A DNA stretch of 64,000 nucleotides from Candidatus Omnitrophota bacterium (lineage in GTDB: Bacteria > Omnitrophota > Gorgyraeia > Zapsychrales > Fredricksoniimonadaceae), in the NCBI GenBank assembly GCA_044225175.1, contig JBGAJA010000002.1:216949-280948 (forward strand). The letters run 5' to 3'. The position numbers were made by a program, and so were the translations under genes. The notes below the pieces were generated by a model. That model was not told the origin of the DNA, ran no database searches, and worked only from the letters and a program-made list of their open reading frames with translations. Of this stretch, positions 12,001 to 63,999 are shown in pieces (positions within the stretch are counted from its first letter, which is position 1; each line of letters starts with the position of its first letter).

Positions 12001-15000
12001 GTCTATGATCAGTCGACAGTGATTGACTCCTATGAAGCTGAAGGGTTTGACTACCGCAAGTTCAAGAAACAAAGAACCCCGTATATCAATGATCAAATCG
12101 ATCAGAACGCAGGTGGTAAACACGTTCCCGATGTTTTACAGACATGGGGATCTGATTATCCTGCATGGGCCAACATAATTTCTGTTTTGATTGGTTTAAT
12201 TTCCTTTATCCTTATCTTTGGTAAACCTTTAGCATGGATAGGCCAGATCGTTCGATTCTTTACAAGCGAGAACAAACAAGCAGCCAGAAATGTTGCCCAA
12301 AGAATTGCTCCAAAAACGATTCAACAAATGGTCCTCGATTTAAATGCTTATCGTCATAGCGGCTATGGATTCCAAAAGGGCGCTCTGAATGAAGCCTACG
12401 GGGCCTTGGTTCGTGAATTAAAAGATCGTTTGTATGCAGGCGAAACATTAAACGGCATCACCACAGAATATTTCAGACGCTACCTTGAGAATTTCTTTAA
12501 ACCTGTCATGTCAAGAGTGTTGAACAAAGCTGAGTATCAAAGACAATTACAATTGATTGCAGGATATGGATTAGAAGAAATGTTCATCATGGAAGCAATT
12601 AATCGCGTTTCTGATAAAACAGCTAATGTAACTGCATCGGTTGATTTCTATCGATTCTATATAGCTATGCAAGAAAAGACGCATAATCCACTATTTGGTA
12701 TCAATGTTGAAGCTGATGCTAGATTATGGTCTTCTCTCTTATGGTTGCATCAATCTGGTCCAATTGTTAATCCAGCAAATAAGAAAAAATCAGACACCAT
12801 TCATCATGATGATGTCGATGGCATGTTTAGAACACCTGGCTTTATTAAATTTTATTCTACAGCTCAAGCTGAACAGGGTGGACTAACTGGTCGAGATTTG
12901 ATTGAAGAAGAATTAATGAAAGTCATTCGCTCAATTCCTGGAAAAGAAACAGTCACCATAGTTGAAGGATATGAATTCATCAGAAAAGCTTTGCCAAAGG
13001 ATATTCCTGCTGATGTCGCTCGAAAGGGGATCACGGTCAATCAAATAATAATGAAGGTTTATCCTGATATTAAAACCAGTGTATTTGGTATTTTAGGGTG
13101 GATCCGTATGATCATGAACGCCACCCCGCAATTTGTTGTAGCACTTGGAGTTTCAGCTTTAGCTTCCATCGGTTTAATTTGGATGAAGAAATCAGATATT
13201 GAAACATTGCAGATGTTGAGTTCTGGATATTTTGTTGCCGCTATCCTTGCTGTAACAGTCCTTACATTCTTTATGTACAAGGGAGCTAAATACGTTATCC
13301 GCAAAGCTTCCCCTGCAGCCTTCCACTTATTGTTAAGTATCTCAATGTTGGTCTTGATAGCCTTAGGCTGGTTTGCTCATGGATCCCTTGCGGCCATGAC
13401 AACAGCTGCCTATGCTGGATGGTTTACAGGGCTGACGATTTTCATCGCAGGTGTCGGTTTTATTTATCAGGCTTTGAAAGGGATTGACCGAAGATATTCT
13501 CAAAAAGTTTTAAAAGATAAGAATAAAGATAATTCAGATGAATGGACCATGGTTAATTTGGATGAACATGATCGCACACCAAAGGGGACATTGGGTCGTC
13601 AAGCAAGAGCTGCTGGGGTGATGATGGCCACATTATTGGCTAAATTTGTGGCTAATGTGTTTATTTGGAAATGGATCGCCGTACCGATATTAATCACATT
13701 AAACAGTCAATGGCAAATGGCAGATCTTTTTGGAGTGTTCCATGGCTTCACAGTACCCATGGGAGATAAGATTATCCTTGGGTTGACTCTTTCTGTATTC
13801 GCTGCCATTTTTATTTTGGACATATTTGCTTATTTCTATCTTATCGAAGGTGCTTTAGGGTATTGGATTGCTAAATTCAACGGTAATAATCGTATTAATT
13901 TCTGGAAACGCAATCAGGTTGTCTCCTATGGAGTTTTTGCGATAGCCGTTCTTGGCTTGGCAGGACTACTAGGAGTTCCTTATTTAAGCACAGGATTAAC
14001 AACAGCACTTACTTACATAGCTTCATTTAAAACTGTTGCAGTGATCTTGAATATTTTGAGTCACGTGCCTTTTGTGGGTACCACCCTCGTCAGTATGACA
14101 GGGCTTAAGATAGCAGTATGGATGGGCGTATTACTTAAACCAATCAATTTAATCTTAGGTTTCTTGAGCATTGAGAAAATTGGCGGTGACTCAGTGGTCG
14201 AGAAATTCGGTGTCAAAATGCACAAGGATACGGTTAAGATTGATCCCAATGGCGCAGCTCATCAATTCATGATCAAGAATCTTCCTCCAACGTATTTTAA
14301 TGATCAAGGCCAGCGCGAGGATTTAACTTTAGCACAACGTACAGTTGCCTTCGCCAAAGCCTTTAACATGATCATCTTGACCCTCTATGAAGATGATCTT
14401 ATTAATATGGATGAAGCTAGGGGCATGATTTTCGTATTTAGCTATGCAAACAAAACACGCCAAGAATCAGAGCTTGCAAGTCTCTTTGGTGAAGATCCAG
14501 ATGAAAACAATTTCTTAAACGGAACTATTATTAGAACACCACAGCTTCAAATAAGACCTGAAACATATCGCGTTCAAGACAGATTACAGAAATTTTTCTC
14601 AAGCATTTATATGGATATGTACCACATGCCGATTTATGAAATGATTAAAACGCACAGCACGATATTACCGTTTTTAGCTGAACCTGTTTTATATCCTTTT
14701 GCAGACCAAGATGTTAATGAATTTGAAGGGATTAATTCTCCCTACAAGCTCAATGAAAGAAAGGGCCACACAATTGCTAAGTATGGCACATTCTTAACTC
14801 ACATTATCAGAAGATCTCCAAATCAATGGGATAATTTCAAAGCTCGTCTCAGACGTGAGACAGAAATCGCCAGAGCTAATGGGACAATTGATCAAGAGAT
14901 CTACAATAGACGAATAGCAGATCTACAAATGATGGAGGATTTGAAATTTGGTCAACGCTTAGGAAAGAAGGAATTGGATCCTGCTGGCAAAAGGCATGCT

Positions 15001-18000
15001 TTAAATGATCCAGAGATGGAATTACAAATTCGTTTGTTTGCTTCATACCGCTTCCAGCCAATGGCCCGCTCAGCTCGCGGTATTATGAGATTTAGACAAA
15101 TGTATCAATTTCAGGCCAAGGTGAATTTCCCAACGAGACAATCCTTACTGGCTTTTGAGCAGTACAAAGAAGAAGGGTTAATGAACAGAAATGGCCTGCC
15201 AACCAATGGATATCAAGACAAGATTGATGCCTTGGCTGATGCGAAGTTTGAATTTATTGTTGGACCTCAAAGCTATGGAGAATATCTGGGTCATGTGACT
15301 AGGGATACATGGCAAGGATTGGCTGTAAGAGATATGAATCTCTTACTGAAATTATTCCCAGCGATGCAAATCGCCTATTTGCATAATCCTGATCGTGCCA
15401 TCGATTCTTATGCAGGTGTATCAGCTGTTTATTTAACCAGCCAAGAGTATGGGTCACTAGAAGAACAAATGCTGGTTTCCATCCAAGAACAATTGGATAA
15501 CAAGGAAAATATTACAAATCCAGACGTAAGAAATAGACTAAAAAATTCTCTTCAATTGTATCGATTTACAACAAGTGTAAATGGTGTGGAAACAGTGGTT
15601 GGTTATGTGGTCCGTAAGAATATTATTAAGTTGAACTCTCACTATTTTGCGGGTCAAGGTAAACCGGTTAACCAAAACAATTTGCTTAAATTTGTTCATG
15701 GGGAAATTGCCCAGTTAATGGATATCAACCAAGACTTCTATCTTGAAGAAACATTCAAAGGGCCAAATTTAGCGGAAGAGTTTAGATATGATCGAGATAC
15801 TGCCATTGTAGGATTCCCAGAAGACATCTTTACAGATGAGTTTTCACCAGCAGGTGAAGTTCATGCCTTTGGAGACCACACATTTACAACAATCACACAG
15901 CGTGTTTTAAACTTTATGGGAATTCGTTATCACTATGGTCATCCGGATTTTATCCGAACAATCTCCTTTAGACAATTAGGACTCTTTAGTGCTCCATGGG
16001 TCAATGAAGACATTTATGGTGCTTATAAGGCTACACTTTACGGTGAAAAAGTTATATTCAAGGAATTTATTCAAGCTGCTAAGGCTCGTGAAGTTGTTTA
16101 CATCGGCCTTGTCGGTATCTCAGATAAATTTGGCGCAGGCGCAGGTGAGCAAGCCATTGATCATAAGATGCAAGTTCTTAATCGATCTTCGATAATTGGA
16201 TTTTCCAGAGCATTCATGCACATAGTAGCTTCGATAGGATATTTCTTACGTAAACCAATTATCGTGATTGCAAGTGTCTTGTATTTATTAAATGTGGTGT
16301 TGTTTGGGTTAAGTTTCTTTGTCTCTTTCCCAGATGAATTAACATACGGAATGATAGGATTATTCTTATCTCAAGCGATAGGGTTGCCGGGTTATCTTCA
16401 ACTTGTCTTAGAGCGTATGATCATACCTAGTACGGTCAGATTCTTGAAACTATTACCCGTATTAGCTTTAACGTATATTTCTGTTCTTTTTAGCGCCTTC
16501 CAAGTTGGTGTAAAGAAGGCTTATGTCAATAGTGCAGATTATGTTGCAACAGGTCGTCGTGCTGGTCGACAACACATGGTGCCTTTTAAAGATACTCTAG
16601 GGTTAACTGGAGTGCATTTATATAACAAAGGAGATCTTTATGGGCAAGTCAATCTTCCTGGTATCGGCTGGCTTATCCCAGGAATAATGATTGTGACATC
16701 AGGACTCAAGTTATGGGCAAGTCCAGGATCGATTTGGTCTGCGATGCCTGTCTTCATGATTTTAGCCGGCATACTTGCGGTATTTATTATGAACCCCGGT
16801 TCCACACCGATTACATTTGGTATTCGTAAATTCTTTACGCAATATTTTGGAGAAAACCTCCCTCACTTCTTTGCTAAATTTGGGGCAGAAGCGCTTTACT
16901 TGAAAAACAAAAATTTAAAAACGACCGTATATGATCATCAAGGAATTGAATTTGGTCAAATCAATGAAAGAGCTAATACAAATGATATCAAGCTCGACAT
17001 GAAGAGATTCAAATTAGGTGTGGTTGTGTATACTGGCGCACTCGCCTTGACGATTTTGATTCTTATGAACGGCATTCCTTATCAAGGTTTATTGCTATTC
17101 CTCCTGTTGTATCCATTGTTAGGATTGGCTGGAAACAAGCAGTTAGAACGCCTATTAAAGAGTAAATACACCTTTAAAGAAATCTATAACGATAAAAAGG
17201 TCGAAATTCGAAATAATCATAGATTTGGACAGGGCAAAGAAGTATTTAAGAAAGTAGTTTTTGAATTTGGGTTAAAGATAAGAGAGTTTATTAATTTGTT
17301 CTTTGCAGGAACATTTGTCATGGGTTCTTTATTGATCATCGGCATTGTGACAGCAATTTTGATTAGTCTGCCTTATCAAATGGGAGTTCTCTTAAGAGCG
17401 TTGGTACCTAGCAAGATTGTTCCAAGATTTATAAGAATTTCTGGGTGGGTAGGTATGGCTTGGGTGGTTAATATCATAGCTTCCAATGTCGCTATGGGAC
17501 CATTAGGTATGGTAGCTATGTTAGTCTTTACTGGTGCCTTGTCTATAGGACTATTCACAGGCTCTCGCAGATCCGCTATAGAAAATATTAATGCCATGGA
17601 TTTTAGTTTCATCTCTCATCCAACTCAAGCTGGTCCAAGCAGAAAAATTAATCGAAGAGTTGCCATGGGGACTATTTCAGTTTTTGTGATTGCCCTTGGC
17701 ATTGCCAGTGTCAAAACAGGAATTGTTAACTTAAATCTATTTAATCGTGCTCCTGAGCAAACTACCCAATTAGAATCCAATACTTCTAAAGATATTCCAA
17801 ACGTTCAATCTCAAACTGAAGCTGTCACACCTTCTCCTGAACAATTGCAAACTACCGCAGCCCAAGAAGCCCAAAGACTTTCCAACGAAGTGATTAACAC
17901 CATTGATCCTCAAACCGTTCCAGGAATTGAAATTACTCCTATAGAAAAGGATTCAAAAGAATCTGTTGGCCCAACACCTGAAGAAGTGAAAGCCGCCGCT

Positions 18001-21000
18001 GACAAAGTGGAATCAGACAGAATCGCTGCTGAAAAGAAGCTGGCTAATGAAAAAGCTGAAGAAGAGATAAAGAAGGACATTGAAATCTTAAGAACAGGAA
18101 CTGCAGAGCAAAGACTAGGGGTGATCACCAGTTCATTACAAATGTCTGATGAGGCTATTAGAAAATTATTACCTGAAATCTTAGTTCTAGCTTATGACAA
18201 GGATGAACAAGTACGCACACAGGCCATTCTTTATCCTACAAAGATCCGCTTTCCAATTCTAACTGTTTATGGTGAAGAGCATGTCAATATACTTCATAAA
18301 CTAAATAAAAATACTTTAATTAAGAATGCTGAAAAGATGAATTTCTATTTAGGTTTGGAAAGCAGATTGTGGTCGGAACACTTCACAGATCATATGTTTG
18401 GGTATGAAGACGAATATCCTTTAATCTACACCTATACAATGACGACTCTTTATTTTTCTAATCTGACCGCTATCACTAATGATATTGCTATTCAAGAAGG
18501 CAACGAAGATCTTCTGCAAGCAAGAGAAGAAATGAGAGACGTGTATAGAGCTAGCATTGCTCAAATCCTCAATCTTTTGATCGATTCTCATGTCTATCTT
18601 CAAGAAACATTAGATCAATTTGAACTTGTTTTAAAAGACCATCCAGATTCACAAAGAGCCCATGAATATATTAAAGAAATCATCAGCTCGGTCAATCAAG
18701 ACAAGCAAAAGGCCATTGAAGATTATCTGAAACAGGAAGATTTAACCATCTGGAGAGAATGGATTCATATTTTTGCCGGAGTATTGACCGATAAAATTGA
18801 GCAGCTATATCCAGATAGAGGATTAGATTTCCATAAGATTAGAACATGGATAGCCAAGAAAGAAATGACTCGAGATGATATCCATGAGTTAAATAACGAT
18901 ATATCCATCGAATTTAGAAATCAAGCCTTTGCCCCGCATATGACAGATATCGCAGACAAAGGCATTAGTAACAATAGACCAACCTATATTATCACTGGTA
19001 AAGAGCATGTGCAGGGTCTGGCAGAGTTATTAGGTAGCAATTATCGAGGAATGAACATTTATTACCTTCTTGATCCTGCCGCACGCAAGGAAGCTGAAGA
19101 AGCTGCAAGAGCAAAAGCTGCAGAGGATAAAGCTCAAGCTGATAGAATTGCCGCTGAGAATAAACTTGCTGAAGAAAAAGCTGCAGAGACAACACGCATT
19201 CTTCAAGAACAAGAGGCTGCAAATAAAGCCGCCGCTGACAAAGCTGCCGCAGACAAGGCAGAAGCTGACAGAGTAGCTGAAGCTAAGAGGCTTGCAGATG
19301 AAAAGGCCGCTCAAGATAAAAAAGCCGCCGATCAAGCTGCCAAAGATGCAGCCTTTATCCAAACAATATTAGGAATCCTTTTGATTGTTCTTGGATCAGC
19401 GGGAGGATTACTCGCAATTATGTGGGGTATAAGACAGTTGTTTGAATTAAGAACGGCAAAGAAAAATCCTAAAGTGGAACCATTGCCAGGTGCTGTAAAG
19501 ACATCATCTGAAAAAGATAATCCTGTTTCAACTGTAAGTTCAAAAGCCCCTGATTATATTGTTGAAGATGGCGCTCCACGTCCTCGTGGCAATGGCAATA
19601 TTTCAGTTGCACCTCCAATAGCTGTTCCTCAAGTAATGCAGTCACCAAATGTTCCAGCTGTTCAACCACCAACTAGAGCTGGACCAAGTTGGTTACACAT
19701 AAATGTTCCAGCCACTCAATCACCAACTAGAGCTGGACCACGCAGGTTACAAATCATCGGTTTAATGGCAAGTATTGTAGTTCTTGGATTGATGTCGTTG
19801 TATGCCTTTAGTCCTTCGGAAAAAACACAGCACAATGTTCCAAATCCTTCTACAAAGATTACAGAGTCTGAACAATCCAAAGTCACAGATTCCAACACTG
19901 CAGAACAATCTCAGCCTAAGGCTGATCAGCCTACGGCTGAAGCTCTCGGTTCTGATGATCCAAAAGAAGTTTCTACACCTGAACCAGCAAGTGAAGCCAA
20001 AGAATCAACACCTGTAGTAGTATCACAACCTGAAGAACCTGCACAAGCTAAAGAAAATGAGTTTGATACAGCGACAGAGGAAGCTAAGAAACGAGAAGAG
20101 CAAGTTGAAGCGTTAAATCCAGATAATGTGAGAAGCTCTTTAGAAAAACGAGAATCTCCAGTTCAAGAGCCAATACCTCAAGAAATAGAAGCTAAAGTGC
20201 TACAAGATGCTCAAGCTGAAGCTGATCGTCAAGCTAGGGAAGAACAGCGTCTGTTGGATGAAAAGAAAGCTGCTGAAGAAAAGGAAGCCAAAGAGAAAGC
20301 AGAACAGGCTGCCCTCGCAAGAAGATTAGAAGAAGAACAAAAAGCCGCCGCCGATCAAGCTGCCAAAGAAGAGCAAATGCAGAAGCCTCCTGAAATAGAT
20401 CGTAAGAAATTAGAAGATGGTGTTATGAAACCAACTGAAGCAGACTATAAGGAAATTGCAGATAAGTTGGAGCGCATCAAAGAATGGCTTAAGAATAGAC
20501 CAGCTGATCAAAAAGATTCTCCCAAACGTTTTCCAGGCATCGTCGCAACAACAGATGCTCCAGCCCATATTTTAGTCAGTGAACCAAGTGGTATTGTAAG
20601 GGAAGCTACAGACATTCAAGAACGCGTGATGAGCGATGAGGAAAGAAACACATGGATCCGTTTAGTAAGTCCATACCCACAATTAGATAAAGACATTCGT
20701 TTTGTGATTATTGAAGATCCAGCCTTGCCGATAGCCATGCATCCTGTTGTGAAGAAATTCAAGCAAGCAGATGGAAGCACAGTCGTGATTTTCTTTGAAT
20801 TCATTAATCCTATGTTCTGGGGTATCAAAGATCCTGCTCGACAAGAAGACATGTTTTTCCATGAGATGCAAGATGTGATGAATTATGGTATGGAAGAACA
20901 AGCGATTTGGGAGATAGAAGCTAAAGCATGGACAGATTTAGATCGATTGGCTAAGTATATTGAATGGCTCAATGACAAGACCAAAGGAATCACAGTTGAT

Positions 21001-57000: not shown

Positions 57001-60000
57001 GACGCAATGTCTATAGTTCAAGAAGTTATTTGGGCCAATAGGCCAAACCAAACACTAAAAAGAGTTAGATTAAAGAGTTCTACCCCATTTAGAAACGTAC
57101 AAAGAACGGACATCCTTTGGTCTCCTCAACATTTAATTGGAGCTGAATCGTGGTCCACCCCTGCTTTATTTGCTTTTGATCAAAGAATGTATGAAGAAAA
57201 TCATAATGATTATCGAAGGTTATTATTAAGAATATTGAATTTAGATAAGTATCAGAATTCAAGAGGTCTTATCCATGCCGTCCTTGAATATCAAAGTACA
57301 CAAGAGCCAGGAGTTAATAACTATAAAAGCCGCATTCTAGGTTTTCTTAATCGGAATAATGTCCTTGGTCGCTACAGAATAACTGCGGTTCCACCTGTAG
57401 AACAAAACATAAAGGTGTATTCTAGGAAAGACTTTAAAAGCCTTCCAACGATGTTACCACCCCAGGAGCCTACCAAGAAACGAGAGCATTGGGACACAAG
57501 CTGGCCTGAACCAACGGCCGTCGAAATAGAGGATGCCAAAGCAGTTCTAAAAAAATTATCAAATCAACCACGACCAGATTGGGGTACCAAGTTTATCCAA
57601 AGTCCCTATGGAGATCTAAAATCATCTAAATCAAGAATATTAAGAGCTCTCTATTTTGAATATCCGGATATTGCAGCAGCTATTCTAGCTAGTGCCGGCG
57701 TTAATGTGCATGGAAACCTAAACAAGATCCTTTGCCCCAATAGAGATGAGGAGCGCATTGAATATATTCTTCTCATTAATCTGTTTAACATGTCTTTAAC
57801 TTTTTGCCTTCTGGATCCTCCAACGGTTATCAAGGATCCCAATAAGACTACAGGTGAATCCTTAAATATTAAGTTTGATGTCAGAGGCATGGCAGGAGTT
57901 TTTGAACACCTTCCTTCACACATTGCCTCAAGTATTTTGTACCGTGTTTCAGAACCTAATTTTATCCTGCTTGTTAAAAGAACGATTGCTCATGTTATTA
58001 AAAAACAAGGAATTACAACTGGGGCAATAGAGAGATTACTTTTTGCAATGCCGCAATCTAAAAGAGATCTGATTTGGGAGAAGTTACTGCCAAAAGAAAG
58101 AGAATTCTTTGGGGATCAGCCTTCTTTACCTGCCCCTGTGCATCATACAGCCCGTGTTGATAAGCCAATCCCACGCGTTGCAGGAAAAGGAGAGGGAAGG
58201 CTGGTCGTAATACGCTCCGAGCATCCTACAGTAGATGAAATACGAAATATTCAACCAGGTTCGATTGTAGCGGTTGAATATTTACCTACCTCAGACACCC
58301 ATGTAGGAACATTTCAAGGTATTATCACATTTCGTCCAGAAGGAAAAACATGCCACGCCCAAGCTCAAGCCAAGCAATGGGAAATTCCCCATGCTTTAAT
58401 ACCTGGCCCAGAATTTTTGATCGAATGGGAGGGCAGATTTATTCGGATGACTGTTGAAAGAGACAAGGTCAGTTTTGCAGGAATTAAAGAGCATGCGATC
58501 AAAGACAAAGAGGTTTCAACGGCTATTGTCTTACCTACTGTGGACCTTTCCCCAGAAGCTCCATTAATACTTCCTTCTGGAGACATCAGACTTTCTCGAC
58601 CTACGTTGATGGGTTATAAGCCAGCATCCCTTAATCTTTTTTCGCAGTATCCTATCCAATTATCTAATACATCTATTACAGCAAGTGTTGAGCAGGGCAT
58701 GGGTCTGACATTTAAAATGTTTCTTTATTTATTAGAGAAAGAAAAGAATAAAGATACCTTTTGGAAATATAGAGATGACGTTATTAAATCTAAGAATGAT
58801 AAGGATTTACAAATAGCTTTGGAAACTCTAAGAAACTTTATCGAAAGGGCCTTTATTTCTTTACATTATGAGCCTGAATTTGAAGAGCTTTTCAAAGATC
58901 TAATTGCCATGGTAGAAAGTTCTGGGGCATTTATTCGCCTGGCAACTAACGCAGAAAGTTTGCCGGATTTTCCTGGATTTGGATCAGGTAAATATCTGAC
59001 TATTGCACATGTTACCTCTCGAGAGGAGCTTTGGGAGGCAATCCCAAAAGTCTATGCCTCTCTTTGGAGCTGGGAAGCCTATATGGAAAGACAACAGCGG
59101 GGTGTGGACCAGTCCAAAGTATTTTCTGCTATATGGGTCGTGCCTTCACAGCCTTCTATCTATGCCGTCAATATCCACACCTCAGACGTATATCTGCAAG
59201 ACCCCAATAGAATGGTCATTGAAATAGTTTCCGGTCAAGGTCAAAGCCTGGTCAGCAGTGATGAGGAATTTGCAGGACTGCCGACATTGATTGTGTTAAA
59301 CAAGGCAACAGGTGAAATTATTGAACAAAGCCCTGGAACAAAACAAAATAAGATCATTCTAAATGACAAGGGAGGCACTCAAAGAGTACCCATTGAGGAA
59401 ACAGAGGAATTTCTAAACTTAAATGATGCTCCTGAATTAATCAAATCACTTTGGGAAATAGGAATGGCAGCAGAAGGATTCTTTAGAAAGCAATTAGGAG
59501 ATGATCTGAGTCACCAAGAAATAGAAGCTGCGATCATTAAGAAAGAAGGACGTTGGCATATTCCTTTATTGCAGACCCGCTCTGCTGGCAATATTAACCA
59601 TGTTTCTGCTATGCATGCCTGGTTATTTATACCCATTGTTCCTATGATGATGTCCACAATAGGTATGGACGGTTCCATGATCATCCCTGCAACTCTGCTT
59701 GTGCTGGGTGTTTTGATGATTTCGACTTTCCGTCGATGGTTTTCTTATAAAAAGCTCATCGAAATGACCCATACCATGTGGTTTAAAGTTTCTTCCATGC
59801 TGGCAAGCATTACCCTCCTTGGCTGGATCAATTTAGAATTCGTAGCCCCACAATTTCCCAAAGACATATCTCTTCCTTTAAAAGTCTTACTTAATTCTTT
59901 GATTTTTATGGTCTTTACACTTGATTTGGATTTTTTTGCCCAGCGTATGTCGAAACAGGGAGTTTTGTTCAAACAAACTCTTGCAATAATTCCGACTGGA

Positions 60001-63000
60001 CTTGTGATGGGGGTCATTTCTACTTTAAGTTTTTGGTACTTTAATAAATTTGTAGCTCTCAATGAACATGTGGGTTGGAATAATATTTCATCTGCATTTA
60101 TGTTTATAGTGCCCTATATGATTTTGACCTACTTATTAGTGATCGTTCTTAAGGCTAAGGGAAAGAACTTAAAAGAGGCCATTCAATGGAAGATATTTAA
60201 ACAAGATCTACTCTTTGTGGTGCTGGGAGGAATACTTATATTGGTTTTGATGATACCTGTGACTACTCTATTTATGAAAACTGATCATGCGGTGCCTTAC
60301 GCCATCATCAATACCCTAAGAATTGTTAGTCTTATGTCCACAGTAAAATGGAGAACATCTGTTTATTCTGCTATTGTTGAGATCATTCGTGGTAAGGATG
60401 GTCAGGAGAAGCAGAAGGAAGCATTCTTGTTAACACGAGGTCATTCTGTAATACGAAGCTTTATTGTCGTTTTTCCGGAATTTGCGCCATACGCAGAGAT
60501 AATTGATGGATTCACTACCCAGTATTTCAGCGCACTCTATACATGGGCCACCAATAAAGAAGGGTTTATTGTTAAAAATGAACAGTTGCGCAATAAAAGG
60601 GCGTATTTAATTTTCTACGGCGTCTTTGGGCCGATTATTTGGTTAGTTAAGAAATCTATTGAAAGAAATAAAGCAAGTCCTCAGTTAACCAATCATACGC
60701 TGATAACACCTGTTCAAGCTATTGAACCACCACTTGCTCAGGACAATTTAGTTGAAAAGCCCCCCATTATTTTTTCCTTAACGGATATCCAGTTTGAATC
60801 TGCTAACCAACCTTTGATGCATCAGCCTGAAAGAGCAGCCCCACAGCCTCCATTAGGGATTGTGTCATTGGATCCTGTTCCAGCAGACGTATTTGCAGTT
60901 AGGCAGGGAGCATATTTCCAGGACCAAACGAATATTCTAGAAGGCTTTTTGAATGACACAGATTATGAAAACTTAAGAAGCCAGGTACGGACCCAAATGC
61001 AAAAAGATCCAAAGCGTTTTACAATTCGTCTATCCTTGGATCGTTTGAACTGGAAAGAAGATTTTGTTCTTGTGAATTATGAAGGCTGGAGATTTTTATT
61101 CCCCAAGGCATGGGTGAAAAGAGAGCAGAATGGCCATCTTTTAAGGTCTGCGATTGAGCGTGCCTTAGTCTTTGAAGATCCTGGTATGCGTTTGGGCAAA
61201 GGGGAACCATTTATCTTTTTTCCTGTTAAACATAATTTGAGTTTTAGCGCTAATAAAGGAGCTGCAGATCATTTTGTGGCAGATTATGAGAAGGATAGAT
61301 TCATTTTGGTTAATCGCTCCCTGATTCCATTGATCTCCCGACTAGAACATAGATTCCGAAGTGCTGGTTTAATTCTTCTTCAAGTCCTTATTGGCCACGA
61401 ATTACGAAGAAAAATCTACCATACTAACGATGATGCTACTGAGAGAGAATATGCGTTATTGAGTCAGGAAATCTTTGCAGGATTGGCAGATATTAATATT
61501 GAAGAAATTTTTAATGCCTTTCAGAATGAGGGGCTTATTAATGACTCTACAAGAAAAGTCCTGATGCCTGCAGAAGTTAGCCGTTTTGGGGCCAAGGACC
61601 ATCGGTTGGTTAGAATGTTAAACCGTGCTTTTGTAGGTGGGAGTGTGATCAAAGAAGGAAGTCAAGTTCTTGAAGTAGGTGCAAATCATGGAATTCTAAC
61701 CAGAAGCTTAGTCGAGGCCGTACGGGCCCAAGGTATTCAACATGTTTCATTTGTGACGACCGATGATTCTCAAAAGGCTTTGGTGGATACGGCACGTCTC
61801 TTAAAAGTCAGAATGGGAGGGTATGATGAGGTGCAGGTACGCCAGCCTTTTGCCAAGAACGAGCAAGAACTCTTTGATGTAATTTTTTGGAACCCCTCAT
61901 GGCTGCTTAATAATCTGGCAGAAGGAAAATTAGGAGAGTATTTAGAATTCTTCTCTACTCGATTATCTGAGACCGGAAGGATTTTTATTATTTTTCATGA
62001 AACTAATGCTCAAGAATTAGATCTTCGTTCTATTGCTTTGAATCAAGGCATGAATCCTACAGAAATTGATGTGTACAAGACCAAGCATGGACGGATTGGA
62101 TTATTTGAGTTTGTTTCCATAGAAAAATTAATGAAAGCAGATCAAGAAGATTTTCATATTACGGCCTATGATTACCGAAGGGAATCTGAAAATTGTAAGA
62201 AGACTAATCTGGCTGTTTTAAAATATTATAGATTTATGGCTGAAGTTGTTGAAAGGACTGCCAAGCATTTCATTAAACCAGAAGGTGATTTCGAGAAGAC
62301 AAGACGAGAAATTTCTTTCTTCAATCAAAAAAGGTCTGGTTCTCACTGGAACCCTCTTATTGAGAATGAAGAACGCCTAGCCCAATTCTTAAAACGAAAC
62401 CTTCGTCTAAGTAAGATGCAAGTAAACATTGTCTTGGATCTTGTCAGTCTTTCGATGAGAGCAATAAATAAAGAAAGGGCCTTTTTCTCGCAATATCAAT
62501 ATGTGATGAGTGCTATAGCCCCTAAAAGAATCAGCACCAAAATTCCAAAGTCATTTGACGAGCAAATTAATTATTTTAAGAAGACCCCAGAAATTTACGG
62601 TGTCTTCTTATTAGGCACTGTACTGCTTTATCTAGGGTGTAGACCACTCATTAATGAGTATCGAATATTTACGGATGCTCTCAATGCTGTTTGTGTGGCA
62701 ATCATCATGTTGATCTTTTCAGACCCCTGGTTAAATAAACTTGCAGAATCAATTTATAAAAGAGTTTTTCATTCCTCTAAAGTAAGTAAGAAGATTAGAA
62801 TCTCTGCTTCCAAGCCCACATTTACATGTGCAATTAAGGATATTGCAAAACACACACTGGTCGTTAATTTCGTTGATGCCACAAAACTGGAGATATATCT
62901 GGATCACCGTGGCAATGTTCTCGTGATGCCCACAGAATCCCATTTAGATAATCAACACTTTCAGTATGGCAGAGAAAAACCAACACAATTATTGGCTGAT

Positions 63001-63999
63001 GAGGAGTTGATTGTTTCAGGGAAAAATTATATATCGGGGCATCAATCAGGAGATTATCGTAAAACACATCGTTTATATTATGAAAGAGCTGATTTAGGGG
63101 ATGTATTTAGAATCATAGTCACTCAAAAAGGAACATTAAAGATTCAATTGATGGATCAAAAAACAAGTCTCGATATTCACTGGGATTATTACCAAACATT
63201 TTTTGAAAGAGAAGAAGTAATTATATTTGCATTGACCTGCCTGACTGTGTTACCTGCAAGTCTAATATTTTATTCTCACTATAAAAAGGTATTTCTTGCC
63301 GATAGTTTTCTGGCAATGATATTTGAAGTTTGGTTGGTTCTTATTCCATTTGTTTTAGCTTACAAAGTCATTCCATTAGATCGTTTAGATGGGACAAAAA
63401 GAATATTTCTTAAGACTTTTTCTTCTAAACAAGCGGCTAAAGAAATCAAATATTTACATTCTTTCAGGACAAAGGAAAAGAAAGTTTCTCAACGTATATT
63501 ACGTAAGCTTCAAATATTGGCTAGAACTGTCTCAAAGGATAATAATTTAACTGAGGCACAGAATAGAATTTTAAACGACGCAATCCGCGATGAATTAACA
63601 TCGTGGTTGAGAGAATATCCAAGTCTTGAAACAGTATCGAGTATTATTGCTGGCTGGGCACAATCTACTGATTTCGATTTTACAAAAAAGATTGCGATGA
63701 ATGCAGTGTCGGAAGTCTTTTCGGTACAGAAAAAGCCCATAGAAAGACTTCTTAATCTAGGTCGTTTTGAAGGAGACCACCATGTTTCTCATAAAGAGAT
63801 GGAGGGAGATATTATACCTCTAGAATCTGCACCTTCTTATGAGGAACAGTTAAGTGACCGTCATCTTTGCGGGTTAAAGTCTACGAAAGATATTCAGGAG
63901 ATATTAGGTCATTTGGAATCTATTGATGTGGATGTTCTAAAAGAGTGGCTGGAGATCAAACTAGATATTCTTTCCCAGCGCAATGATTTGAAGATTCTA
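1..63999 (+). CDS. Internal fragment, partial at both ends, of a giant ORF of about 21,330 codons encoding a multidomain polytopic membrane protein. No start or stop codon falls in the window.
   Basis: Codon-by-codon manual translation of the frame starting at nt 1 met no TAA, TAG or TGA across the whole window. Other frames hit stops about every 20-70 codons. The ORF track lists no closed + ORF in this frame. Codon bias is consistent, and the translated sequence contains recognisable protein motifs. Confidence 0.85.
691..836 (+). other. Proline-rich linker (PLAPPPQPISTAPVVPSHNPTPPAPGPVPLPVQMPVPNTAAGNSPPPF)
   Basis: Direct translation. Pro content is above 35% over about 48 aa. Confidence 0.7.
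1000..2290 (+). other. Acidic low-complexity region rich in Ser/Asn/Thr/Val/Glu, probably disordered or surface-exposed
   Basis: The translation is dominated by S, N, T, V, E, G and A, for example NAENGENNAEAQVGQAVRVEVPVSQ and SNDSNTVARLNDVGNG. It has no hydrophobic core pattern. Confidence 0.5.
7500..8290 (+). other. Beta-strand-rich porin-like segment with alternating aromatic and polar residues
   Basis: The translation includes TTVQYRDITVGVSRAIGQPRYGFTAAYKNFSTYYSYQGGEKAYGAAANFKVFEDLQANVEVYHSATAKYGVRFDFEQRIAQKWGVNVG. This shows the alternating hydrophobic/aromatic pattern typical of membrane beta-strands. Confidence 0.35.
12150..12260 (+). other. Single predicted transmembrane helix (AWANIISVLIGLISFILIFGKPLAWIGQIV)
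   Basis: Uninterrupted hydrophobic stretch of about 25 aa in the translation. Confidence 0.6.
13080..14180 (+). other. Cluster of predicted transmembrane helices, about 10
   Basis: Successive hydrophobic stretches of 20-30 aa, for example FVVALGVSALASIGLIWM, YFVAAILAVTVLTFFMY, LLLSISMLVLIALGWFA, AGWFTGLTIFIAGVGFIY and VFAIAVLGLAGLLGVPYL. They are separated by short charged loops. Confidence 0.65.
16185..17715 (+). other. Cluster of predicted transmembrane helices, about 12-14
   Basis: Hydrophobic stretches such as IIVIASVLYLLNVVLFGLSFFV, LLPVLALTYISVLFSAF, MPVFMILAGILAVFIM, VVVYTGALALTILILM, LLLFLLLYPLLGLAG and FVMGSLLIIGIVTAILISL. Confidence 0.65.
17983..18085 (+). other. Ala/Glu/Lys-rich coiled-coil-like segment (AADKVESDRIAAEKKLANEKAEEEIKKDIEIL)
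   Basis: Direct translation. Composition and heptad-like pattern. Confidence 0.5.
19078..19352 (+). other. Ala/Glu/Lys/Asp-rich coiled-coil or low-complexity segment (AARKEAEEAARAKAAEDKAQADRIAAENKLAEEKAAE...KAAADKAAADKAEADRVAEAKRLADEKAAQDKKAADQAAKDAA). It resembles TolA or IF2 linker composition.
   Basis: Direct translation. About 90 aa with more than 45% Ala and the remainder E, K and D. Confidence 0.55.
19355..19432 (+). other. Predicted transmembrane helix (FIQTILGILLIVLGSAGGLLAIMWGI)
   Basis: Hydrophobic stretch immediately after the coiled-coil segment. Confidence 0.6.
19648..19755 (+). repeat. Imperfect tandem repeat, 2 x 54 bp, encoding NVPAVQPPTRAGPSWLHI and NVPATQSPTRAGPRRLQI
   Basis: The two adjacent 54-nt units are aligned by eye. 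They begin aatgttccagctgttcaaccaccaactagagctggacca and aatgttccagccactcaatcaccaactagagctggacca. Confidence 0.7.
20205..20385 (+). other. Third Ala/Glu/Lys-rich coiled-coil-like segment (QDAQAEADRQAREEQRLLDEKKAAEEKEAKEKAEQAALARRLEEEQKAAADQAAKEEQ)
   Basis: Direct translation. Confidence 0.5.
21400..23690 (+). other. Large beta-strand-rich domain with outer-membrane beta-barrel-like periodicity, about 760 aa
   Basis: The translation shows dozens of short alternating hydrophobic/polar strands with aromatic girdle residues and Gly/Asn/Asp turns. Examples are TFGFTTLDLGFEKDEWQFGGLIEVNSLRL, AWVSYADGKTAWLGFINK, GTYSWQGHAVSIYVFTS, LFGVTELKYNGELFKAGIQVEYTKGF and TGWQLGATYKWVFVRRNF. Confidence 0.45.
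23905..23940 (+). other. HExxH motif (FYHELISHIANHEN), a possible zincin-type metal-binding site
   Basis: Codons cat gaa ctg atc agt cat at 23905-23922 encode H-E-L-I-S-H. A further HE follows 4 residues later, and several Glu residues lie 15-25 residues downstream. Confidence 0.3.
23990..24265 (+). other. Two predicted transmembrane helices (IFETVLLGIIFVWGAIIIIRSIF and VHTLVLVIAVIGTILALILT)
   Basis: Hydrophobic stretches in the translation. Confidence 0.6.
24295..24321 (+). repeat. Copy 1 of a perfect 27-bp direct repeat gaaaatagggagttgaccctcatttct, encoding ENRELTLIS
   Basis: Identical 27-mer found at 24766-24792. A degenerate copy gaaaataggcagttgacccc lies at 24679-24698. Confidence 0.8.
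24766..24792 (+). repeat. Copy 2 of the perfect 27-bp direct repeat, encoding ENRELTLIS
   Basis: Identical to 24295-24321. Spacing is 471 bp, a multiple of 3, so both copies are in the same frame. Confidence 0.8.
24860..28900 (+). other. HEAT/Armadillo-like alpha-helical repeat array
   Basis: Recurrent helix-turn-helix repeat signatures. Examples are GNKDISYMALRAAQAFPDPGVFKAL, DDPQVQIQGAIYAGKIL, DHDPRIRSHAALLVGQMKD, TDQTRILALLALRQSTD and TRSVLTLTAALEVASQS. They resemble PBS-lyase HEAT-like repeats. Confidence 0.45.
29880..30010 (+). other. Two predicted transmembrane helices (IFTIAAVVLLGYRWFIV and WWDTAVIATLYFNVSAY)
   Basis: Hydrophobic stretches. Confidence 0.5.
31495..32350 (+). other. 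Cluster of predicted transmembrane helices, about 8
   Basis: Hydrophobic stretches such as LPTMILMALAIPQMVPALYLLLALSLAGVAGYFL, AVFRAISFLFAA, ILLLPFSGTTLGLLYF, IASVALTGLFLIEAVIELGYIAY, IMFIVGGFILLGASVLF, IFAGLGALTGFYLAVMEFVF and AAIIHLSILFWATSSIFGLV. Confidence 0.65.
33829..33864 (+). other. Matrixin/metzincin-like motif HEFGNYLGWSHQ, with the second zinc-ligand His replaced by Asn, and a possible Met-turn Met 8 residues after the last His
   Basis: Codons cat gaa ttt ggt aat tat tta ggc tgg tct cat caa. The matrixin consensus HEFGHSLGLSHS matches at 8 of 12 positions (H, E, F, G, L, G, S, H). The downstream sequence is QENQDLEMRFW. Confidence 0.4.
37685..41030 (+). other. Very large transmembrane region, about 25-30 predicted helices, interrupted by a soluble insert at about 39200-39740
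   Basis: The translation is almost continuously hydrophobic. Examples are MVLALIVAGVIVVGLGILAWPL, ILLYAGSLGLLTIVF, LFCATILGIIIMMAW, FAMMVVPAIIMVVWLGL, VAVFIMGVGGAVLWPLILALV, IFVVVVAIITIVLMTG, LGVLVLSTVILITTL, LVGFWAFVTLFILLYIVLVIGSMLVL and LVGVIFVVMMKCVSVLAAFLISVFFI. Confidence 0.7.
39091..39097 (+). repeat. G7 homopolymer tract within the coding sequence, encoding GVGGAV
   Basis: ggggggg read directly. A run this long is unusual in a sequence of about 39% GC. Confidence 0.6.
43050..43335 (+). other. Cluster of about 4 predicted transmembrane helices
   Basis: WIFGLGLIIVLSLWVFG, PGFLLIILTTTASFIASFLGF and AIFIIPGVMYFLPKIYFFMMGYYVL. Confidence 0.6.
44565..45360 (+). other. Cluster of about 8 predicted transmembrane helices
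   Basis: IVAAIGAVMLLGLIIKVL, VILMMVGIVLWLINVSQLLLVFLGILNSILLGNLF, VILGGSFVGRIIITWF, FLFKVFAFLSVPPLYV and LFIVFMAGIFSVGMMGTIGVIIICSLILAGIGILIV. Confidence 0.65.
47698..47705 (+). repeat. C8 homopolymer tract within the coding sequence (atg ccc ccc cct, MPPP)
   Basis: cccccccc read directly across the line break 47700/47701. Confidence 0.6.
47980..48240 (+). other. GNAT acetyltransferase-like motif region (GIFVVDYLREMGIGRMLRWHLLNYLKE)
   Basis: Resembles GNAT motif A (h-V-x-x-x-x-R-x-x-G-I-G-x-x-L), preceded by beta-strand-like segments VLVFLHGDLVGAYSF. Confidence 0.25.
48430..48960 (+). other. Class I SAM-dependent methyltransferase-like Rossmann-fold region, with motif I VAELGCGSAVG at about 48619-48654
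   Basis: Translation RTVAELGCGSAVGVEIFRRIADAYVVGFDSYEPFVNFAQSHGLPVVHSDLISMPADSEEKFEVTFSARLL. This matches motif I (hh-E-h-G-x-G-x-x-x-G), an acidic post-I residue (VVGFD) and a motif II-like FEVTFSA. Confidence 0.4.
49055..49525 (+). other. Cluster of about 6 predicted transmembrane helices
   Basis: CIFICSCGMLVLAGI, ISLLVMVVGGLFAYVF, VMVIMGVGIGFAFLYGGIMIFVGPI and ILFTLLYAALMVVLISRFYIWM. Confidence 0.6.
55350..55585 (+). other. Cluster of about 3 predicted transmembrane helices
   Basis: VALTPLILGFGIAWIGFV, LLISIGGALFV and IFTIVVIAFAAFMLMVL. Confidence 0.55.
58180..58480 (+). other. Phospho-histidine swivel domain of the PEP-utilising enzyme family (PEP-utilizers-like). The candidate catalytic His codon is at 58354-58356.
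   Basis: Translation GKGEGRLVVIRSEHPTVDEIRNIQPGSIVAVEYLPTSDTHVGTFQGIITFRPEGKTCHAQAQAKQWEIPHALIPGPEFLIEWEGRFIRMTVERDKV. This aligns by eye to the family pattern G-x-a-x-G-x-x-x-v-i ... GdILVtxxtxPxw ... GIvTxxGGxTSHAAIxARExGIPaVvG ... G-x-x-v-x-v-D-g. Confidence 0.5.
58700..59580 (+). other. PPDK_N-type ATP-grasp domain (PEP/pyruvate-binding domain of PEP synthase, pyruvate phosphate dikinase or rifampin phosphotransferase), located downstream of the His domain in a permuted order
   Basis: AFIRLATNAESLPDFPGFGSGKY matches [35 protein letters not shown] matches [60 protein letters not shown] matches [47 protein letters not shown]. The terminal HQEIEAAIIKKEGRWHIPLLQTRS matches the DIEWA...LQARP signature. 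Confidence 0.5.
59600..60345 (+). other. Cluster of about 8 predicted transmembrane helices immediately after the ATP-grasp domain
   Basis: AWLFIPIVPMMMSTIGM, MIIPATLLVLGVLMISTF, VSSMLASITLLGWINL, LLNSLIFMVFTLDL, IPTGLVMGVISTLSFWYF, FMFIVPYMILTYLLVIVL and LLFVVLGGILILVLMIPV. Confidence 0.65.
61560..61930 (+). other. Second class I methyltransferase-like Rossmann motif region, with a degenerate motif I VLEVGANHGILT at about 61666-61701. It is possibly catalytically inactive.
   Basis: Translation GSQVLEVGANHGILTRSLVEAVRAQGIQHVSFVTTDDSQKALVDTARLLKVRMGGYDEVQVRQPFAKNEQELFDVIFWNPSW. It parallels PRMT-type VLDVGSGTGILS ... FDIIISE. A-N-H replaces the canonical G-x-G. Confidence 0.3.
62590..63375 (+). 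other. Two clusters of predicted transmembrane helices
   Basis: IYGVFLLGTVLLYLGC, AVCVAIIMLIF, VIIFALTCLTVLPASLIF and FLAMIFEVWLVLIPFVLAY. Confidence 0.55.

Follow-up and report, generated by a model that had tools for sequence, protein, structure and literature searches.

A GT48 glucan synthase-type module within a giant polytopic protein of Candidatus Omnitrophota

The 64,000 nucleotides (nt) of DNA analysed here, hereafter called the window, come from a contig of a Candidatus Omnitrophota bacterium (JBGAJA010000002.1, positions 216,949 to 280,948 of the forward strand) and encode part of one giant protein with many hydrophobic, transmembrane (TM) segments. With respect to its affiliation, this protein is very probably one of the giant, polytopic proteins with multiple domains that form a described class in the Omnitrophota, which are ultra-small, host-dependent members of the PVC group, since the closest relatives of the one block that is widely conserved in it are located within Omnitrophota-type giant open reading frames (ORFs). 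Regarding this block we propose, with more doubt than confidence, that a GT48 glucan synthase and exporter with an apparently intact catalytic site is the conserved core module of a clade of Omnitrophota giants and constitutes a distinct bacterial branch of the GT48 family, that the giants would in part be membrane-embedded polysaccharide factories and not lytic weapons, and that the roughly 15 other hydrophobic clusters might represent new membrane-protein families.

Direct translation shows that frame +1 is free of stop codons over bases 1–63999, i.e., 21,333 codons, as compared to about 1,436 stops expected from base composition and to 1,498 and 1,838 stops found in frames 2 and 3, respectively, and that the GC content of the three codon positions is about 0.50/0.35/0.34 in every 8-kb tile. 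The window is, on these grounds, an internal slice of one larger giant gene of at least 21,333 codons, open at both ends and located on the forward strand, as are all features given below unless stated otherwise. A preliminary description of the window had placed the protein at 12150–63375; this span lies within the ORF but falls short of the gene, the stop-free frame filling the whole window and continuing beyond it at either end. No RNA families (Rfam scan), introns or large repeats were detected in the window. As regards composition, cysteine is extremely rare (46 of 21,333 residues, 0.2%), and 28 of the 32 2-kb tiles show a positive GC skew, the cumulative skew curve climbing near-steadily after a small dip at nt 2001–8000.

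The glycosyltransferase (GT) domain of the putative glucan synthase is located at 14551–16257. In the Pfam scans, which were run with long tiles and then with 1,000-amino-acid (aa) tiles at E ≤ 0.5 over nt 1–60000 and at E ≤ 1e-3 for nt 57001–63999, the family Glucan_synthase (PF02364) matched at nt ~14551–16300 with E = 1e-50 and 173.3 bits (cut-off 37.2 bits), and a phmmer search of PDB sequences matched the domain to FKS1/GSC2 with E = 4e-22. Over about 700 residues (aa ~4851–5555) it is collinear with the eukaryotic GT48 enzymes, i.e., those of the 1,3-beta-glucan synthase or callose synthase type, and the GT48 signature motifs GxGKxxNQN, DxNQDxYLEE, HYGHPD, NEDIY, GEQ and ATGR are all present, the homology running on into the first helices of the adjoining TM cluster B and including there the invariant ATGR motif. 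When the active-site residues of Saccharomyces cerevisiae Fks1 (PMC10499315) are transferred via the alignment from the PDB search, the window has the identical residue at 11 of 14 positions (E851, K1082, D1102, N1104, E1155, H1195, N1220, E1221, D1222, K1246 and R1248), the differences being D1080 to Q, K1172 to G and E1173 to D, of which the K1172 position varies in plants too. In addition, E55, K382, D402, N404, E435, H475, D498, K522 and R524 are invariant in all 12 sequences of an alignment (A2) made up of 11 Omnitrophota-type sequences and one of eukaryotic derivation (L014, see below).

The arrangement of membrane segments around the GT domain follows that of the eukaryotic enzyme as well. 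Fks1 consists of an accessory domain, TM1–6, the GT domain and TM7–17 (PMC12715860), and in the window a cluster A of six conserved TM segments precedes the GT domain and a cluster B of at least seven follows it. By family-averaged hydrophobicity, 14 hydrophobic segments hold their position over nine homologues sharing 31–42% identity, namely a lone anchor (aa 4055–4073, nt 12163–12219; insertion free energy, ΔG, of −1.2), which is kept across the nine sequences, the six segments of cluster A (13129–14166; up to nine segments at lenient thresholds), the counterpart of Fks1 TM1–6, and at least seven segments of cluster B (16258–17727), which corresponds to the C-terminal TM or channel part of Fks1. 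To judge from sequence, the module at nt ~12163–17727 is thus a complete FKS1/callose-synthase-type (GT48) glucan synthase.

Two further regions complete the conserved block. The pre-anchor domain (aa ~3430–4054, nt 10288–12162) shares 31–42% identity with eight relatives and has many invariant residues in their alignment (A3), and it matched nothing in the Pfam scan or in a PDB profile search, so that no fold is recognised for it. The stretch of about 300 aa that links the anchor to cluster A (12220–13128) was not matched to FKS1_dom1 by the Pfam scan, and an hhalign comparison of alignment A3 with eukaryotic FKS1_dom1 gave a probability of 35% and E = 4e-4 around a common GFQ(K/R) motif, which is suggestive only of a correspondence to the accessory domain of that name. 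Taken together, the so-defined supermodule (10288–17727, about 2,400 aa) comprises a domain of about 620 aa, a lone TM segment, an accessory-like region, six TM segments, the GT48 domain and at least seven further TM segments.

In order to place this supermodule, contigs of GTDB genomes were scanned with an alignment of the GT48 core, and JGI metagenome contigs were scanned as well. The GTDB scan yielded 13 loci, 8 of which are titled Candidatus Omnitrophota, and the closer ones share 37–54% identity with the window over about 720 aa and 60–68% in the core. In nine GTDB loci the fetched sequence, in most of them about 22 kb or more than 7,000 aa, contains no break in the matching frame from end to end, and the metagenome scan added four further fully open loci, one of them on a 1.17-Mb contig; in all, the homologous module was found in at least 12 contigs, most labelled Omnitrophota, that were assembled independently in different studies, within open frames that continue past both ends of the fetched loci (20–22 kb in most). 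In a neighbour-joining tree of a 360-aa core the window nests in a bacterial clade beside loci L016 and L009 and apart from about 60 eukaryotic sequences, L016 having 68% core identity to the window and a GC content of 0.387 as compared to 0.39–0.40 for the window. The supermodule is present in loci L003–L013 and L015–L020, which form this bacterial clade apart from eukaryotic GT48. Collinear similarity to the relatives is restricted to aa ~3229–5860 (31–42% identity), with the conserved block of about 2,400 aa at aa ~3430–5860, the flanks being not alignable except for one displaced module in L003 (see below); with L018, similarity extends weakly back to aa 1213 (aa 1213–2998 collinear). In the relatives, too, the lone anchor is preceded by about 2,500 aa without TM-like segments.

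The surroundings of the supermodule differ from one giant to the next. It lies in mid-ORF in the window and its closest relatives, followed in L018 by a clear GNAT domain (2.2e-08) and in L016 by a long HEAT array, and in the more distant L008, L011, L012 and L015 the ORF stops soon after cluster B. Because the position and size of the supermodule relative to the ORF thus vary between relatives, these comparisons support a mosaic, module-fusion architecture of the giants. The image of a string of fused membrane-protein modules used in the preliminary description fits this variation, and the pair of clusters A and B, at the least, is clearly a true membrane-enzyme module. A soluble module of about 300 aa (aa 14035–14341, nt 42103–43023) points in the same direction: it is common to the window and L003 (25% identity, E = 2e-13) and lies about 8,200 aa downstream of GT48 in the window and about 2,600 aa downstream in L003 (20702–21727), and its displacement speaks for modules having been shuffled, or large indels having arisen, between the giants. 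In locus L008, from a single amplified genome (SAG AM-311-J02), an in-frame TAG at 7169–7171 splits a frame of about 4,800 aa just upstream of the supermodule, the ORFs 113–7171 and 7196–14584 lying in one frame; this could be a sequencing error, a pseudogene or a case of read-through.

One candidate for a stand-alone bacterial GT48 enzyme was rejected. Locus L014 (CALOCH010000001.1), from a metagenome-assembled genome (MAG) assigned to the Gammaproteobacteria, carries at 6783–12820 a gene pair of 320 and 1,691 aa, which shares 71% identity and its arrangement with a locus of eukaryotic plankton (P0002/L001, next to DHHC and Sec15 genes), and probably represents a mis-binned eukaryotic contig in a public MAG.

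Searches of protein collections gave a rather different picture. A word-indexed protein database returned four eukaryotic GT48 proteins only, at 22–25% identity and one of them on a contig that its DHHC and Sec15 genes mark as eukaryotic, for nt 12901–17850 and no matches for nt 49000–63999 and 24001–33000, and the block of 20 TM segments at nt 37621–41100 had no match among 1.84 billion representative proteins in a full HMMER search. Single-protein scans of genome contigs with nt 58501–63999 and of metagenome contigs with nt 1–9000 were likewise without matches, so that neither the source organism nor a near relative is contained in those collections. The large protein collections also returned none of the Omnitrophota homologues that are present in GTDB contigs at 37–54% identity. 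Very long or contig-truncated ORFs seem to be missing from such collections, which would bias orphan calls for giant genes, and zero matches are weak evidence of orphan status because the database is evidently without Omnitrophota giant ORFs.

Outside the supermodule, the polytopic nature of the protein rests on hydrophobicity. TM segments were counted on the Kyte–Doolittle scale (19-residue span, threshold 1.6) and on a Hessa-type scale of insertion ΔG, summed over 19 residues with values after Hessa et al. 2005. The Kyte–Doolittle scan gave 74 segments in about 20 groups, as compared to 35 ± 5 in residue shuffles of this rather hydrophobic protein, and the ΔG scale gave 53 segments at ≤ 2 kcal/mol versus 5.3 ± 2.4 in 30 residue shuffles, and 32 at ≤ 0 versus about 1. 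Both scales united yield 75 segments, and other thresholds between 42 and 72. The hydrophobic excess is therefore real, being about ten-fold over shuffles, and a number of some 55–75 helices is defensible. The window protein is hence indeed a polytopic giant encoded in one stop-free frame, as had been described beforehand, and hydrophobic groups occur where they had been placed, along with further singletons and pairs. The earlier figure of about 100 helices was too high, however, the counts ranging from 53 (strict ΔG) to 72–75 (lenient), and the more than 15 clusters announced are reached with about 20 groups if singletons are counted but not with the about 11 groups having two or more segments. 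The clusters are spread over 17,000 aa, with one segment per roughly 230–330 residues after the TM-free N-terminal part. At the nucleotide level the clusters are mirrored by the AT skew, which falls to ≤ 0 exactly over the TM-rich stretches with their T-rich hydrophobic codons.

In detail, the first 12162 nt (1–12162, about 4,054 aa) encode a region without a convincing TM segment on either scale, up to the lone anchor. Downstream of cluster B follow two strong TM pairs, one at aa 6456–6474 and 6585–6603 (19366–19809; ΔG −2.1 and −1.1) and one at aa 7999–8017 and 8065–8083 (23995–24249; ΔG −1.5 and −2.3). The only tandem arrays of the window, four in number and short (periods 15 and 54; Tandem Repeats Finder, TRF), are found at 19100–19940, around and between the segments 19366–19422 and 19753–19809 of the first pair, which suggests a low-complexity linker. 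By the hydrophobicity scales, cluster E (31510–32340) contains about five segments, cluster F (37687–39219) 9–12 segments with short loops and cluster G (39934–40989) 6–8 segments, all three without a family match. They are followed by a single segment (aa 13987–14005, nt 41959–42015; ΔG −1.2), cluster I (43054–43308, 2–3 segments) and cluster J (44653–45354, 3–5 segments). Antisense to the latter, at 44910–45584 on the reverse strand, lies the sole other stop-free stretch of at least 200 codons (225 aa), most likely a by-product of the codon composition of a hydrophobic region. A further single segment (47773–47829; ΔG −0.4) is situated directly upstream of a GNAT-like domain, and cluster L (49045–49497, four segments), cluster M (55354–55581, 2–3 segments), cluster O (59674–60264, 3–5 segments, directly after an ATP-grasp domain) and cluster P (62593–63360, 2–4 segments, near the window end) make up the remainder. 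An origin of the modules by internal duplication, for which a test had been proposed initially, found no support, in that blastp of 300-aa tiles against each other gave two weak matches and hhalign comparisons between 11 TM clusters gave probabilities below 27%.

With only four Pfam families in the window (Glucan_synthase, HEAT_2, a marginal GNAT and PPDK_N), about 90% of the protein is without any match. HEAT repeats, a helical-repeat scaffold, are found at 27610–27774 (HEAT_2, 6.2e-08, 33.3 bits versus a cut-off of 27.7 bits, on a 3,500-aa tile) and were seen again in a further Pfam scan. The GNAT acetyltransferase-like domain at 47980–48228 is marginal (PF00583, E = 4.6e-4, 20.9 bits versus 20.7 bits; 19.5 bits on another tile). 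At 58672–59589 an ATP-grasp domain of the PPDK_N type is indicated by PF01326 (7.7e-16) and by the PDB entry 8a8e, a phosphoenolpyruvate (PEP) synthase (2.5e-06); the NCBIfam PEP-synthase models align only at their positions ~15–334, i.e., the N-domain of PEP synthase or PPDK, and the swivel and PEP-binding domains are absent from the region. Apart from these PEP-synthase N-domains nothing was matched by NCBIfam over nt 1–60000, and the PDB phmmer tiles over nt 1–61500 matched only FKS1/GSC2 and PEP synthase. The alternation of membrane clusters with soluble enzyme-like and helical-repeat regions, which had been noted before, is borne out by the GT48, PPDK_N, marginal GNAT and HEAT regions between the hydrophobic clusters. 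In the same scans of the window no peptidase domain and no dockerin, TSP3 or discoidin repeats were found with Pfam, and no glycoside hydrolase, lytic transglycosylase, lectin or adhesin domain with Pfam and NCBIfam.

A mechanism that would be consistent with these data assumes that the giant polypeptide is inserted co-translationally into the cytoplasmic membrane, and that each TM cluster is an integral-membrane machine or an anchor holding the next soluble module at the membrane, so that enzymes and scaffolds would be strung out along the membrane as a tethered chain. If it works like Fks1 and BcsA, the GT48 module would polymerise a cytoplasmic UDP-sugar and extrude the glucan via its own TM channel, and the exported glucan might help to form a polysaccharide or "coat" at the cell surface, or the zone of contact with a host cell. 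The ATP-grasp (PPDK_N) and GNAT-like domains probably face the cytoplasm, because they need ATP and acetyl-CoA, and the HEAT repeats may act as scaffolds. If the six helices of cluster A and the accessory-like region are arranged as in Fks1, with the latter being cytoplasmic, then the at least 4,054 aa without TM segments that precede the anchor would be located outside the membrane, with a possible role in handling the polymer or binding the host. In agreement with this orientation, there are no K or R residues before the lone anchor and two after it.

The sheer improbability of a gene of this size, along with the in-frame TAG in the equivalent ORF of L008, might suggest that many separate genes were joined during assembly or processing, or that in-frame stops had been taken out of the sequence. 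Yet at least 12 independently assembled contigs carry the homologous module in open frames and thereby rule out an artefactual concatenation of genes, the coding statistics are uniform, with no RNA genes, introns or large repeats, and complete, read-verified genomes with such genes have been published, so that we consider an artefact extremely improbable. GT48 is a family of fungi, plants and protists, and a single very large exon of a protist gene, free of introns, might thus account for the window, given that the protein database yielded only eukaryotic GT48 proteins at 22–25% identity; however, this eukaryote-only result is explained by a database evidently without these giant ORFs, and the Omnitrophota-type MAG relatives are much closer (37–54% over 720 aa, 60–68% in the core) and the window nests within them, which leaves a eukaryotic origin with next to no credibility. 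Similarly, it is very hard to accept that the hydrophobic segments are the buried cores of soluble domains. Lenient thresholds do produce 35 segments in shuffles, and there are doubtful cases such as aa 18351–18369 with a ΔG of +9.0, but 32 segments with ΔG ≤ 0 stand against about 1 expected, the segments are at least 19 residues long, near charge-free and clustered with short loops, and 13 of them coincide with TM regions in a family whose membrane structures have been solved.

Two other explanations deserve more weight. Kizina et al. and West-Roberts et al. interpret the giants of V. archaeovorus and the Archaeovorins as extracellular predation effectors or adhesins, the bulk of which lies outside the cell and binds and digests the wall of prey or host, with TM helices as mere anchors. 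The TM-free N-terminal part of at least 4,054 aa, which is presumed to lie outside, would be in line with this. However, the enzymes recognised in the window use UDP-sugar, ATP and acetyl-CoA, which are cytoplasmic, and are biosynthetic and not lytic; the scans of the window revealed neither a glycoside hydrolase or lytic transglycosylase nor a dockerin, lectin or adhesin domain, and clusters of 8–12 helices with short loops resemble integral membrane domains and not simple anchors. An effector or adhesin is therefore regarded as unlikely, if a serious alternative. Rather improbable, in turn, is a polyprotein, i.e., one chain that proteases cleave after translation to release many separate proteins, both membrane-bound and soluble. 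It would be favoured by the peptidase domains (C39 and S8) that some giants carry, for which the possibility of cleavage has been raised (West-Roberts et al., bioRxiv 10.1101/2023.11.21.568195), and by the separability of modules, the supermodule ending the ORF in L008, L011, L012 and L015 and lying mid-ORF in the window; but the window shows no peptidase domain in the Pfam scans, cleavage motifs are not known, and published proteomics shows peptides without resolving processing.

Several observations count against the proposal of a membrane-embedded glucan synthase in an Omnitrophota giant. Throughout the bacterial clade the position of D1080 is occupied by Q, which together with G and D at the K1172 and E1173 positions leaves activity and product unproven. 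Structure predictions by AlphaFold2 are of low confidence, the single-sequence model of TM cluster F being all-helical with a predicted local distance difference test score (pLDDT) of 48 and the model of GT48 plus cluster B, built with four eukaryotic homologues, having a pLDDT of 31. Moreover, the parity of TM counts between GT48, GNAT and PPDK_N shifts with the threshold and gives no stable topology. As to the affiliation, the window carries no taxonomic marker, and the assignment to Omnitrophota by sequence depends on a single conserved module; among the related MAGs there are three with the label Planctomycetales or Planctomycetia and one with the label Elusimicrobia, and the SecA family was not found at E ≤ 0.5 (nt 1–60000) or at 1e-3 (nt 57001–63999) in a gene that extends past the window and might carry the domain there.

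If the proposal is correct, a prokaryotic lineage of an enzyme family that is treated as eukaryotic in the literature that was found would come to light, which raises the question of how bacterial and eukaryotic GT48 enzymes are related in evolution. Giant polytopic proteins take up 3–10% of the tiny Omnitrophota genomes. A module of about 2,400 aa that is kept across many otherwise unalignable giants and is readable as a processive glucan synthase with an export channel provides a concrete handle on them, from which the specific claim would follow that part of the giant's job is the building of a surface polymer. At the same time, at least 50 TM helices over 17,000 residues challenge current ideas of Sec/YidC-dependent membrane insertion.

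In comparison with Fks1 and callose synthase (CAZy GT48; PDB 7xe4, 7yuy and 9lu8), the GT domain is placed between two TM bundles in both, whereas identity is only 23–29%, the GT domain of the window has insertions, and its module forms part of a giant polypeptide, in which a lone TM segment and an additional conserved domain of about 620 aa precede it. Regulation by Rho1 as in Fks1 would not be expected for the window module, as it is bacterial. With BcsA, a GT2 enzyme, it might share the principle inferred from the Fks1 structures, i.e., a cytoplasmic GT-A domain combined with a TM channel that exports the growing glucan, although the window is without a detectable GT2-family sequence match and no PilZ/c-di-GMP module was found. 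No description of a bacterial GT48 enzyme was found, the PF02364 papers among the matches listed concerning eukaryotes, in a limited literature search that is not proof of novelty, and neither glucan synthase nor GT48 nor PF02364 is mentioned in the main texts of West-Roberts et al. or Nielsen & Lui.

Among giant proteins, classical examples such as the repeat adhesins, RTX/Bap-like proteins and the megasynthases of nonribosomal peptide (NRPS) and polyketide (PKS) synthesis have only their size in common with the window, which is without internal repeats and, by Pfam, without adhesin, Ig-like, RTX, condensation, ketosynthase (KS) or acyltransferase (AT) domains, and has many TM clusters in place of a single anchor. 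The dockerin-type giants of Omnitrophota, with TM segments only near the C-terminus, differ as well, in that the window has no such repeats and TM segments over 17,000 aa. Much closer are the polytopic giants of the same phylum, and the initial view that the protein matches no described family has to be given up, since giants with tens to hundreds of TM segments are the described norm in Omnitrophota. ORFs above 20 kb occur in 77 of 116 Velamenicoccia genomes (Seymour et al. 2023, PMC10066038), and for the giant ORF of V. archaeovorus ("Candidatus Velamenicoccus archaeovorus" LiM), of which peptides have been detected (PMC10066038), 39,678 aa, 42 predicted TM segments, few annotated domains and poor conservation are reported (Kizina et al. 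2022, as cited in PMC10066038). The window likewise has tens of thousands of codons, dozens of TM segments and few domains, and is denser with 53–75 TM segments in 21,333 aa versus 42 in 39,678, the two being compared by description and the window being a fragment.

The Archaeovorins have numerous TM regions and recurrent HEAT, glycosyltransferase and PPDK_N domains (West-Roberts et al. 2023, bioRxiv 10.1101/2023.11.21.568195), all of which the window shares along with mostly unannotated sequence; in contrast, the scans of the window brought up no SecA_DEAD, TPR, GT5/GT1, C39 or S8 domain, and the glycosyltransferase present is of the GT48 type. A SecA_DEAD or SecA preprotein-binding domain is carried by "most" published giants. 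At 21,333 aa the window is above the giant threshold of 10,000 aa, the threshold of at least 30,000 aa used by West-Roberts et al. being beyond the reach of 64 kb. Of the 916 long proteins catalogued by Nielsen & Lui (2026, bioRxiv 10.64898/2026.06.07.730766), 94% have TM helices or a signal peptide, with extremes of 147 TM segments in 147,155 aa and 331 in 122,534 aa (one per about 370 aa); 80% of the clusters are sequence singletons, GNAT is among the common domains, and the multi-enzyme class defined there has no dominant repeat. Like this class, the window contains many different domains without a dominant repeat, whereas with one TM segment per about 285–400 aa it lies at or above the dense end and has fewer Pfam families (four in 21 thousand aa). 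Thus, the window carries the recurrent vocabulary of the giants (HEAT, glycosyltransferase, marginal GNAT and PPDK_N) in mostly unannotated sequence and fits the class on every feature tested except SecA_DEAD; the class as such is already described, and the conserved bacterial GT48 supermodule is the most useful new detail that the window adds to it.

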